Of a DNA stretch of 3,496 bases, positions 1 through 3,000 are shown in pieces. The stretch is from Escherichia coli (GTDB lineage Bacteria; Pseudomonadota; Gammaproteobacteria; Enterobacterales; Enterobacteriaceae): assembly GCF_003334385.1 (NCBI RefSeq), contig NZ_QOWN01000092.1; one strand, 5' to 3'. Within the stretch, counting starts at the first letter, position 1. Every line of letters begins with the position of its first letter. The position numbers are program-made.

Positions 1-3000
1 GGCGCACCTGGTGCAGTGGGGCCCGCAGGCCCACGGGGACCGGCTGGTGCAGCTGGTCCCAAAGGTGATGCAGGCCCGGCAGGGCCACGAGGTGAAAGGG
101 GACCTGCGGGGGCACAGGGTGTTCCGGGGCCGGTTGGTCCGGCAGGTCCTGCGGGTAAAACGGGGCCACGAGGTTTGCAGGGAGAAACAGGAAGACAGGG
201 CCCGACAGGTCCACAGGGCCCGACAGGTGAACCCGGACCACAGGGACCACAAGGGCCAACCGGAAGGCTGGTACCCGGGGAAATTTACAGCATCGGAACA
301 TACATTATTGCCGCACTAGCCCCGTATACAACCGACATCGGCAGAACCTATCAGCCAGGAGAAACTGTACAGGGTTCACGCCTTAAGCGATGCGCCATAA
401 TCAAAGATGCAAGCGGGAACTATATGAAAGCTAACACCGATGGCATTGACGGCAGACTATCCTCAGTTCCGGGGTCATGGATGGTGTGTAATGAAATTAC
501 GTCGACAAATGACAATGAAGGCATCGGGCTGTTCCAGCGCGCATACTGACAGACAGGAGATGACATGAATGTGGAAAAAAATAAGCAATCCGCAATGGGC
601 AGATAAAGATCACACTGCTGTGAATTGCATGGTGAAGTTTGAGCACATTGAGCAGGCGGTTCCTTTCACTGCAACAGCCAGCGATACCGAAGCATACGGG
701 CGGGATATTTATGCCGCTTGTCTGAGAGGAGAGGCCGGTGAAATTGCAGAATATGTACAGCCATCCATCAGCCCGGAAAAAGCCAGAGAACTCAAAACCG
801 CCGGGATCAACGCCTGGCGTAATGCGATGGAAGCGGCGAACTACACGTTTGAGCACAATGGGCGTAAATGGGACTACGGGAAGTCAACGCAGACGCGTCT
901 TGAGCCGTCGGTGGCTGCCGCGAAAGCAGGAATACTGCCGGAGGGTTTTTTCTGGACGGATGCGGAGAATAACGACGTCCCGATGACGGCAGAGGCGCTG
1001 ATGGCACTCAGTGAGGCGGCGGAGAAGGCGATGTTCACCAAAGGGATGGAAATTCACGTACAGCAGCGCAACATGAAGAAGGCACTGGAAGCGCTGAACA
1101 GTGCGGATGAGATTCTGGCGTATAAGGTGGGTCAGGAGTCGTAAATAAAAAAACGGGGGTGATGCCTCACCTCCTCTTTCGTCAATAGAGGATTACTGCA
1201 ATCGTTTTTTTATTGTGAAACAGATTCTGCAATAACCGCCAGGCATATTCAGTGATGCCTGTCACACGCTCCGGAACGCGGATGGCAGCGGCATGTCAGA
1301 AAACGATTAATATTATTAATACATCGAAAAAAAATCAGAATGTGGTGGTTATCACATTATTAAGCGTAAGGAACTGTGTCATAAGTGCGCGAGGGAAATA
1401 AGCGAAACGACAGCATGCGGTGTGGAGCGTGAATAATGGCGGGGATGACGGATATCACCGACTGTACAGTACGATAATTCCTAAAAAGTTTATATTCATT
1501 TTTGCGAATAATCCTGGAATAAGCTGACAGGAAGCAGCCAGTTATCAGATTTTCTTTAGTGTATCTGAAGTGCGTCTGAGAGGGTTGCTTTTTTTGTATA
1601 CAAAGAAATTACAGGATATCCATAATGAGTAAAAAATTCACAAAGACACTTCTATCATCTTCTCTGGGTGGGCTTCTGCTTGGGATCAGCTCAGGTGTTT
1701 TAGCTCAGGAGTTACCTCCTATCAAAGATTCTGGTTTGCCTTCTTATTCAGTGCTGAAAGAGGCAGATGCTAAGTCTGTTATACACGGTAGTACTTATCG
1801 TATTTACTATAACAAATCCTCTGGTTGGGGAACAATGCGATATGTTCTGGACGGAAATGATAAGACCCTTTTTAATTTCGATCAGGAGGGTAATATTATA
1901 GTATTGAGTAAAGATAACTCAATTGCATATACCGTTCATGAGCCTGTGCTAAAAGACTTCGCCCGTATGGCAGCAGGCCTCAGAACGTCTGGCACAGAAA
2001 ACGGTAAGCATAAGGTTGATGAGGAGGAGGTCCGCCGGATCTTCAATAAAGTTAATAACTTATCAAATACAATTATTAATCCTGATTTATTTAAAAGCTC
2101 GGATTTTATTTCCTCTGGATCTGCTCCAGAAAATGACCCTGTAGTTCCTGCCAGTGCAGAAGGTGTGTTTGCGTTTGCGACTGGACAAGGTGCCAAGGCG
2201 AATGGATATATAGCAACAGCAGTGGGCTCATGGGCTGCTGCGGACGGTAAACAAAGTACAGCTCTGGGAGGGGGAGCATATGCCTATGCAGATGCTTCAA
2301 CAGCCGCCGGAACAGCTGCTTATGTTGATGGTTCTGCTATTTATGGTACCGCTATAGGTAATCACGCAAAAGTGGATAAAAATGCAACTGAAGGTGTTGC
2401 ATTAGGAGCCAAAGCAATATCTGCACATAAAAACAGTGTGGCCTTAGGGGCAAACTCCCGAACCACTCGTGATAATGAAGTTTACATTGGTTATGAAGAG
2501 GCTTCTGGTAAAGCATATAAAACCCGCACCCTTGGAGGATTGACTGATGGAACTCGCCCATCCGATGCAGCAACTGTTCGTCAGGTTGATCGGGTAAAAG
2601 ACAGTGTTGAGCAACTGGCTCAGGATACGAATACCCGCCTTGTAGTCGAAGCGAAAAAGTCTCGTGAATATACAGACTCCAGAACGACAGTTGGTGTGAA
2701 CCCTGACGGAAAACTTACCCGTGCAGAAGGTGCGACTAAAACTATCGCCGTCAATGATGGTCTCGTTGCTCTGTCTGGCAGAACAGACCGTATTGATTAT
2801 GCAGTTGGTAGCGTTGACCGCCGGGTTACTAAAAATACACAGGCTATTCAGTCCAATACTCGCCAGTTGCAGGAGCATAATGCACGCCTGAACAGCCAGC
2901 AGCGTCAAATTCGTGAGAATCACGAAGAGATGAAGCGTGCAGCAGCACAGAGTGCAGCGCTGGCGGGGCTTTTCCAGCCGTACAGTGTGGGGAAATTCAA

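Follow-up and report, generated by a model that had tools for sequence, protein, structure and literature searches.

Why is the adhesin gene of a prophage preceded by several hundred base pairs of AT-rich, non-coding DNA? The question is raised by a small contig of Escherichia coli (NZ_QOWN01000092.1, assembly GCF_003334385.1), the whole of which, 3,496 bp, was analyzed and is called the window below. In it, 480 bp separate the stop codon of a tail-fibre-assembly-like gene (tfa-like) from the start codon of eibG, which encodes an immunoglobulin-binding trimeric autotransporter adhesin (Table 1). A preliminary description of the window, made from its sequence, had given the limits of this spacer exactly (1145-1624) and had taken all of it for an autonomous regulatory unit of the adhesin gene. 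We find that the spacer is a modular, non-coding junction between the late tail-fibre module of the prophage and an eib cargo cassette. The regulatory interpretation is not supported for the full 480 bp and is likely for the last ~180 bp, which are conserved. Alignment of eib loci suggests that positions 1447-1624 are likely the control region proper, inherited with all eib types.

A long spacer is a trait of the eib family and not peculiar to the window: each of the 28 eib loci in the comparison, which were drawn from phage records, E. coli genomes and IMG/VR contigs, has one. The distance from the upstream stop codon to the eib start codon is 357-807 bp in these loci, at a GC content (guanine plus cytosine) of 32-42%. 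The preliminary description had suggested this comparison with other eib loci as a check on its proposal; its contrast between the spacer and a tightly packed late operon is weakened by the result, since every eib locus has a spacer and since this one adjoins the last tail gene and therefore marks the end of the tail module, not a gap within it. The spacer is indeed AT-rich, but only moderately and not evenly so. It has 40.8% GC (44.1% over 1145-1450 and 35.1% over 1451-1624) and is the least AT-rich of the 28 (40.8% against 32-39%); the T and A runs are present as described. The tfa-like gene has 53.3% GC, the tail-fibre gene 59.4% and eib 46.7%, with 40.1% in its 5' third, and the E. coli average is about 51%. 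The low-GC island thus extends into the 5' third of eib, with 38.9% over the ~700 bp of 1451-2150. There is no open reading frame (ORF) of more than 49 aa and no conserved ORF in the spacer, Rfam had no match at E ≤ 1 anywhere in the window, and nothing is annotated in the spacer in 15 E. coli genomes.

The spacer consists of three modules: a compound hairpin that resembles a terminator (1144-1214), a filler for which no function was detected (1215-1446) and the conserved block (1447-1624). In a BLAST comparison of the window with the fetched loci, which are cited by L numbers where needed, identity is high in the tfa-like gene up to position 1131, 13 nt before its stop codon. From 1131 to ~1446 there is similarity only to eibG-type (G-type) and GER2 loci, while from ~1447-1469 to 1645-1680 every eib type is about 70% identical, and similarity resumes in the 3' half of eib and continues through ORF-156, the next gene downstream. 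The mosaic boundaries therefore lie at codon ~188 of the tfa-like gene and inside eib. A distant blastn search with the distal 306 bp (1145-1450) hit only this locus in E. coli, in 15 of the 5,426 complete genomes; among 50,697 phage records it hit GER2 alone, and no plasmid was hit. The proximal 174 bp were found in 88 places in 29 E. coli genomes. Most of the genomes with the proximal block have multiple copies of it (median 3, up to 6), in multiple eib-type prophage loci, as in strain ECOR-9.

Different upstream genes precede the same eib unit across loci. For example, L013 and prophage P-EibD have different genes upstream of the spacer, and their similarity begins 60-80 nt past the stop codon of the L013 upstream gene and spans the remaining ~290 bp. 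Since similarity is kept despite the different upstream gene, this non-coding DNA belongs to the eib unit. At its other end, the window shares its spacer with GER2 (L007) and SCU-171 (L030) up to 9 nt before the ATG and then diverges from both. The recombination joint therefore falls between the start codon and the Shine-Dalgarno sequence (SD), and the control region is exchanged independently of the coding sequence. The GER2 and SCU-171 loci encode a different Eib-like protein (MNKKF...). In SCU-171, the IS21-family element ISEc12 (istA/istB; L030 1-2270) stands in place of everything upstream of window position ~1234, so that this locus has lost its tail genes along with 90 bp at the start of the spacer, and the eib-like gene retains the rest. 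A hypothetical protein of 38 aa annotated within the GER2 spacer (L007 2735-2851) is probably an annotation artefact, because the corresponding start codon in the window is ATA and a 1-nt difference in an A-run shifts the frame.

The strongest structure in the spacer, missed in the preliminary description, is a hairpin with a U-run on the plus strand of the conserved block (1531-1595). Its folding energy is -26.7 kcal/mol (z = -5.04, 0 of 200 shuffles), compared with -11.2 kcal/mol (z = -1.8) on the minus strand, where it is weaker because the stem uses G-U pairs. Sequence-by-sequence folding gives a hairpin in the same position for all eib types (-12 to -26 kcal/mol, mostly z < -2.5), with arms that differ among types (GCCGAAATACATC/GATGTATTTCGGT, GGCAACG/CGTTGCT and AGCCGTAAT/GTTGCGGCT). 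A covariance model was built from six sequences, and 14 matches to it (13 distinct sequences) were aligned. Of the cells in this alignment, 92.8% are paired, in comparison with 24-49% when the partners are slid; five of the 12 pairs show compensatory changes on both sides, and the covariation score is 0.319 compared with 0.159 for shuffled data (0 of 500). RNAalifold, run on a plain MAFFT alignment, did not show the hairpin, whose arms are shifted by insertions and deletions; for this reason the per-sequence folds and the covariance model were used instead. The strand asymmetry and the compensatory changes point to an RNA structure on the eib sense strand, which in the window has the architecture of an intrinsic terminator.

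The likeness to intrinsic terminators and leader attenuators lies in the stable stem-loop followed by a U-run on the sense strand. The eib stem-loop differs from them in its unusual length (60 nt, in three tiers) and in a 15-nt apical sequence, ATCAGATTTTCTTTA (1544-1558), that is nearly invariant; no alternative antiterminator fold or known antiterminator protein was identified for it. The most conserved motif of the region, TTTGTATACA, trails the stem and is also nearly invariant except in L008. It may serve as the end of the U-tract, as a -10 region or as a protein site. The invariance of the apical and trailing sequences together goes beyond what a plain terminator requires. A pairing of the hairpin loop with the SD region (TTTCTTT/AAAGAAA) is available in the window, not in the other types, and was dropped. 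The SD region is overlapped by another 8-bp palindrome (1614-1621). Its form is GGATATCC in the types G, C, D and E, and types A and L018 carry GGTATACC, in which the changed centre is still palindromic. GATATC is also present at 1452-1457, at the beginning of the conserved block.

The preliminary description had placed a terminator-like hairpin at the upstream boundary of the spacer, and this hairpin exists (1155-1174; -13.0 kcal/mol, z = -3.7, 0 of 200 shuffles), though its tail on the plus strand, TCTTTCGT, is T-poor and makes a poor U-tract; on the minus strand the stem is followed by T7. It is enclosed by a perfect 12-nt inverted repeat found in a repeat search, AATAAAAAAACG/CGTTTTTTTATT at 1144-1155 and 1203-1214, which is 100% complementary. 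The compound structure folds with -22.7 kcal/mol on the plus strand (z = -1.8) and -22.1 kcal/mol on the minus strand (z = -2.9), and a terminator scan matched it on both strands. Other spacer types also have a hairpin just past the stop codon, with the T-run on the minus strand. A weak or bidirectional, lineage-specific terminator is plausible here.

Upstream of the 1531-1595 hairpin, an alignment of 22 distinct spacers shows two conserved elements in the block, GTAAGAnAAnTCCTAAA and, 43-44 bp downstream, nGGAATAnnCTnA (boxes 1 and 2). They were compared with the RcsB box, TN(G/A)GAN4TC(T/C)NA, with its lower-affinity form, TN(G/A)GAN4(A/C)CTNA (PMC7913699), and with the RcsAB box, quoted as TaAGaatatTCctA (PMC3950696). 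In five of the seven spacer lineages, box 1 is a strict RcsB-box match at the same aligned position, as in TAAGACAAATCCTA, and box 2 is an exact match to the lower-affinity form, also in five of seven. The spacing of the two is always 43-44 bp, and the columns that vary are mostly N positions of the RcsB consensus. Any strict RcsB box occurs in ~3-4% of shuffled spacers. No RNA fold beyond chance was seen in the segment with the boxes (1447-1530; z = -0.3), which favors a site at the DNA level. Between the boxes, the invariant columns TnAnATTmA may form a functional element. In the ECOR-9 records, the 'stem_loop' feature ahead of eib corresponds to this AT-rich repeat between the boxes and not to the strong hairpin at 1531-1595; with z = -0.3 for the equivalent region of the window, we reinterpret it as two similar pseudo-palindromic boxes. 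Sites for IHF, FNR, CpxR, OmpR, ArcA and LexA and the RfaH ops element were compared by eye with the conserved blocks, and none fitted adequately. L014, L015 and L017 have a second perfect RcsB-type box, TGAGATTTTTCTCA, ~268 bp upstream of the eib start codon.

The eib boxes share with the boxes of the Rcs regulon (rprA, flhDC, osmC, cps; PMC7913699, PMC3950696) the form of a 14-bp pseudo-palindrome. The RcsB box of Salmonella ymiA, TGAGACAAATCCTA, is one base away from box 1 of the C/D/E types, and a flhD box is identical in 13 of 14 positions to the eib box of L010. In contrast to the regulon, the boxes are degenerate in the window, as they are in the A type, and two boxes 44 bp apart around an AT-rich core are no described RcsB architecture. 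The real ligand of the eib boxes might be a NarL/FixJ-like protein encoded in the cassette. A precedent, and only that, is YadE of Yersinia pseudotuberculosis, a YadA-family adhesin for cell-cell cohesion that is activated by Rcs (bioRxiv 10.1101/2020.03.31.019323); it is chromosomal, whereas eib is prophage-borne, and the likeness drawn here is between the proteins. No link between Rcs and eib was found in the searchable literature. We regard the RcsB-type boxes of the spacer as a lead and not as a demonstration.

What might the cassette-encoded ligand be? ORF-156 lies directly downstream of eib in all 27 loci that extend far enough. All annotations call it a hypothetical protein, and its PHROG, 6585, is labeled 'unknown function'; a full copy is at L003:8096-8563. 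A profile of 19 homologues matched only LuxR/GerE-type helix-turn-helix proteins among the PDB sequences, at weak E-values of 0.07-0.3. The AlphaFold2 model (predicted local distance difference test, pLDDT, 78.9; predicted template modeling score, pTM, 0.72) has an alpha/beta domain of receiver-like form, then a LuxR-type DNA-binding domain of four helices. In a Foldseek search of PDB with this model, the top 19 matches are all FixJ, RcsB, EvgA or VpsT (probability up to 0.99, E from 3e-3), and the predicted fold also resembles NarL and DosR. Asp52 is nearly invariant, and the usual acidic pair after strand 1 is missing. Thus, ORF-156 is probably a receiver-like domain joined to a LuxR-type helix-turn-helix. 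By its modeled fold it would share a family with RcsB and with the partners of RcsB, RcsA and BglJ, and would be a second candidate ligand for the spacer boxes.

Published expression data bear on where transcription of eib starts. Levels of EibG protein and eibG mRNA rise, reversibly and with the phage uninduced, when stationary-phase cultures stand static at 37 degrees (PMC4352079, PMC5450701), and expression is lower at low temperature and in shaken cultures (PMC4352079). A deletion was complemented from pGEM-T Easy by eibG with 168 bp of upstream DNA, vector promoters being possible, and the same 168 bp were used to express other adhesins (bioRxiv 10.64898/2025.12.25.695649). In the window this construct corresponds to 1457-1624, exactly the conserved block. 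Two candidate -10 hexamers lie upstream of the hairpin. TAAGCT (1520-1525), inside box 2, is conserved as TAnnCT in all types, 4-7 nt before the hairpin base, and TATATT (1491-1496) is conserved as nAnATT between the boxes. The hexamers between the hairpin and the SD in the window, TATACA and TACAAA, the latter in the candidate CTGAGA-17-TACAAA (1576-1604), have no T at -7. GAAATT (1605-1610) has this T, but RNA made from it would start downstream of the SD. Since there is no acceptable -10 hexamer between hairpin and SD in the window, we lean to a start upstream of the hairpin. A report by Sandt et al. in 2002 is said, from its title, to record the activation of prophage eib genes by IbrAB.

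We suggest, with somewhat better than even confidence, that the spacer is the tail/eib junction with a control region in its proximal block, in which an activator-dependent start is combined with control by the hairpin. The eib gene would be transcribed in the lysogen from a weak, activator-dependent start within the last ~170 bp. Dimers of the NarL/FixJ type would bind the two pseudo-palindromic boxes 44 bp apart; candidates for these dimers are RcsB of the host and ORF-156 of the cassette itself, separately or together. The hairpin and U7 would stop ordinary RNA polymerase that comes from upstream. For the G-type window we rate at about an even chance that the hairpin is in the eib leader, attenuates transcription and keeps basal expression low; this placement comes from the conserved TAnnCT just ahead of the hairpin base and from the defective hexamers before the SD. 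Binding of H-NS to the island of 35-39% GC at 1451-2150 is compatible with the hairpin in the leader and also with the variant, discussed below, in which it insulates eib.

Several results weigh against this proposal. A consensus promoter scan of the whole window gave three sites, with 3.5 expected, and none convincing in the spacer, and a sigma-70 position weight matrix (PWM), which is rough and heuristic, gave only weak and inconsistent candidates in the window. No eib promoter, operator or regulator-binding site was found in the searchable literature, and promoters of the pGEM vector could have driven the 168-bp construct. In A-type spacers there is a good promoter candidate that would start beyond the hairpin: TTGAAC-17-GATAAT at -46/-23, over its 3' side, with the best PWM score of any spacer (9.1). 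The boxes of the window are not RcsB boxes in the strict sense, with one mismatch in box 1 and two in box 2; they are therefore labeled RcsB-box-like, and the RcsB idea rests mainly on the other lineages. The RcsB box is also low in information and was recognized after the conservation had been seen, so the match is post hoc. ORF-156 has no Pfam match even at E ≤ 10 and no NCBIfam match, and the E-values of its structural matches are weak (3e-3 at best). For the hairpin, the covariance alignment was fitted to the model, and its figures lean towards the structure, the per-sequence folds being independent of it; the L018/L025 lineage was not captured by the model on the plus strand, although its per-sequence folds give an equivalent hairpin. 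Finally, the U-tract after the hairpin is weak in the C/D/E types (GATTTGTAT) and poor to absent in L008.

Much of the same evidence can be read with the hairpin as an insulator. Tandem terminators beyond late genes are known in lambda, and 1531-1595 could, together with 1155-1174, be such a pair for the tail operon, with a weak eib promoter over the 3' side of the second, its -35 in the descending arm, its -10 in TTTGTATACA/GATAAT, and a leader of only 12-20 nt. The A-type promoter candidate lies where this requires it, the C/D/E types keep GATAAT, and the window has CTGAGA-17-TACAAA in the same place; structure specific to the plus strand is equally expected for a terminator of upstream transcripts. 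Three points make us regard this variant as possible but on the unlikely side: the defective -10 hexamers of the window, with GAAATT starting past the SD; the location of the -35 in stem arms that co-vary freely; and the invariant apical sequence, which a simple terminator leaves unexplained. Could eib instead have no promoter of its own, and be transcribed only by read-through from the late promoter with a Q-modified, terminator-resistant polymerase, the spacer being junk and terminators? The gene follows the tail genes immediately and in the same orientation, the spacer has no consensus promoter, and an antiterminated polymerase would ignore both terminator-like hairpins on the plus strand. 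We consider this very improbable given the reversible rise of eibG mRNA and protein in uninduced cultures, the complementation with 168 bp of upstream DNA, and a proximal block that all types conserve and that accompanies eib where another gene lies upstream. A purely DNA-level account, in which the inverted repeats are recombination joints or sites for unrelated proteins and neither RcsB-type operators nor RNA, draws on the frequent mosaic joints, such as that at -9 shared by the window and GER2, and on the palindromes conserved near the start codon (TGTATACA, GGATATCC/GGTATACC). It is improbable too, because the hairpin needs G-U pairs and is over twice as stable on the plus strand, its arms differ by lineage yet stay complementary, as fits RNA pairing and not a common protein site, and conservation of the boxes tracks the specified positions of the RcsB consensus.

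The preliminary description had also called the region a likely target of H-NS-type silencing. As the main control, H-NS filaments would nucleate on the AT-rich spacer, and IbrAB or RcsB-type activators would merely be anti-silencers. The composition fits, with the ~700-bp island of 35-39% GC in a region of 51-56% GC, and a drop in expression at low temperature or with shaking, as seen for eibG, resembles that of many H-NS-controlled virulence genes. BglJ-RcsB is a documented antagonist of H-NS at bgl and leuO (PMC3950696). Against this, no experimental link and no chromatin immunoprecipitation or mutant data for H-NS at eib were found in the searchable literature, the window has the least AT-rich of the eib spacers, and occupancy is not predictable from composition alone. 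We hold silencing as the main control to be a tentative option, well short of even odds; it and the activator-dependent start with hairpin control are not mutually exclusive. An ORF of 13 codons (MAGMTDITDCTVR) with an upstream GGAG (1424-1427) had been noted as possible but too short to call. The ORF is there, with its ATG, its stop codon and the GGAG 8 nt ahead; GER2 and SCU-171, the latter a 93%-identical copy, have it intact, but it is confined to one spacer lineage and does not hold up as a gene. As a leader peptide that controls eib by translation-coupled attenuation it is scarcely credible: it is part of the lineage-specific segment and does not overlap the hairpin, which is ~55 nt further downstream, its start and frame are absent from the A and C/D/E types and from L008, L010, L014 and L018, all of which have the hairpin, and the one diverged copy, in SCU-171, has two changes in one codon that are non-synonymous (D to N). 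In the lineage-specific filler there is an AT-rich near-palindrome, ACGATTAATATTATTAATACATCG (1303-1326), which is absent from other eib types and which we take to resemble sites quoted for H-NS nucleation.

Is eib, then, a moron, that is, an extra phage gene with its own promoter and terminator, expressed from the lysogen, as had been suggested? The term stems from work on HK97 and HK022. The placement of eib as cargo, its low GC content, its own terminator, the mosaic boundaries and the published expression without induction all agree with this and support it in part; for the promoter, the sequence scans gave no convincing site in the spacer, and the complementation with 168 bp of upstream DNA is indirect support, with vector promoters as another possible source. 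The gene is an extra one at a module boundary, following the tfa-like gene where homology breaks at 1131 and resumes inside eib, its base composition and that of the spacer (46.7% and 40.8% GC) are unlike those of the neighbors (53.3% and 59.4%), and a terminator follows it (3176-3208). Morons are defined in the same way in the literature, where EibD is listed among phage-borne factors, and eib is like the phage morons, such as lambda bor and lom, in being an extra late-region gene, of use to its host and of different composition, with its own terminator and induction-independent expression (PMC8065619). It is unlike a classical moron, in which promoter, gene and terminator form a tight insert, in having 360-800 bp of upstream non-coding DNA, a terminator-like hairpin that ends 30 nt ahead of the ATG and, downstream of eib, a gene for a predicted regulator.

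The closest known systems are the P-EibA, P-EibC, P-EibD and P-EibE loci of ECOR-9 (AF151091, AF151674-6; Sandt & Hill 2000) and the eibG loci of Shiga-toxin-producing E. coli. They have the same order of tail fibre, orf-191/DUF4376, spacer, eib, stem-loop, orf-156, orf-60 and eaa, and the P-Eib loci share with the window the ~180-bp proximal block, the terminator after eib and stem-loops annotated upstream of it. The G-type spacer of the window, with 480 bp, differs in its distal 300 bp, which are unrelated to the A (681 bp) and C/D/E (358-363 bp) spacers. Neither the locus nor the general idea is new; as far as the searchable databases and papers go, the internal anatomy proposed here and the prediction for ORF-156 are not in them. 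In kind, the eib spacer is an ordinary control region of a prophage cargo gene, of moderate interest and with testable details.

These details matter because Eib proteins confer serum resistance, antibody binding and chain-like adherence in E. coli, including Shiga-toxin producers that are negative for the enterocyte effacement locus (LEE), and Eib expression is known to vary strongly with growth conditions and host strain. The control region is narrowed from 480 bp to ~180 bp, and its mutable elements are the two boxes, the hairpin with U7 and the invariant palindrome, together with the linked predicted regulator gene. A more speculative extension, which we think unlikely, is that the eib cassette is a self-contained sensory module, in which ORF-156, alone or with RcsB in the manner of RcsA and BglJ, acts on the boxes, and the apical sequence of a leader attenuator is read by a trans-acting factor. 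If true, envelope or surface sensing would be coupled to production of an antibody-binding adhesin, and this would account for induction in static culture and for poor expression in new hosts.

Table 1. Features of the window, with positions from its first nucleotide; a full stop marks features given without a strand.
Feature	Position	Strand	Remarks
Collagen-repeat tail-fibre gene, 3' end	to 549		GC 59.4%
Tail-fibre-assembly-like gene (tfa-like), last in tail module	569-1144	+	191 aa; DUF4376; TAA 1142-1144
Non-coding spacer	1145-1624	.	480 bp; tfa-like stop 1144 to eibG ATG 1625
Compound inverted repeat (A7 ... T7) enclosing hairpin 1155-1174	1144-1214	.	G-type and GER2 lineage only
Lineage-specific filler	1215-1446	.	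No conserved ORF; homologues only in eibG-type and GER2 loci
13-codon ORF	1436-1477	+	Window, GER2, SCU-171; judged spurious
Conserved block, first part, AT-rich, with two LuxR/RcsB-type pseudo-palindromes	1447-1530	.	~70% identity to other eib types
Box 1, TACGATAATTCCTA	1470-1483	.	One mismatch (C at position 3) to RcsB box; 11/14 to RcsAB box
Conserved TnAnATTmA between boxes	1490-1498	.	Invariant alignment columns; includes -10-like TATATT 1491-1496
Box 2, CTGGAATAAGCTGA	1514-1527	.	Two mismatches to lower-affinity RcsB form; includes TAAGCT 1520-1525
Three-tier RNA hairpin and U-run	1531-1595	+	Stem-loop 1531-1590, T7 1589-1595; ends 30 nt before ATG
TTTGTATACA, most conserved motif of the region	1593-1602	.	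Includes 8-bp palindrome TGTATACA; nearly invariant except L008
Shine-Dalgarno AGGA	1613-1616	+	8 nt ahead of ATG 1625; read from sequence
eibG-type immunoglobulin-binding trimeric autotransporter adhesin	1625-3151	+	508 aa; YadA-like
Intrinsic terminator after eib	3176-3208	+	Stem 3176-3204, then UUUU
ORF-156, first 85 codons	3241-3496	+	Predicted small NarL/FixJ-like regulator

The remaining intergenic gaps of the window are 19 and 89 bp. The tfa-like product matches PHROG 1141, 'tail fiber protein' (E = 7e-75), is annotated in the source as a DUF4376 protein, and is a homologue of 'orf-191' in the GenBank annotation of the P-Eib prophages. The eibG product matches the NCBIfam model YadA_autotrans (E = 3e-30), is named 'Immunoglobulin binding protein' in the source, and has the length of the published EibG (PMC4352079); the gene is homologous to the eibA/C/D/E records. 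The spacer is 99.8% identical to that of E. coli JNEC-KY204, where the neighbors are gpJ, lom, a tail fibre, a DUF4376 protein, a YadA-like protein, a 156-aa hypothetical protein and an S6 peptidase, and the window also matches the GenBank records of the four P-Eib prophages. Because these matches, the source naming and the protein length agree, the window is a known eib locus of a lambdoid prophage. The SD is kept across all eib types as AGGA, AGGG or GAGG in the alignment. The terminator after eib folds with -19.0 kcal/mol (z = -3.95, 0 of 200 shuffles), was also matched by the terminator scan, and has a stem_loop annotation at its position in the P-EibA/C/D/E records. At the other end of the window, the C-terminal region of the tail fibre opens with a long collagen-like Gly-X-Y repeat (1-250) of 65-73% GC, far above the rest of the window.

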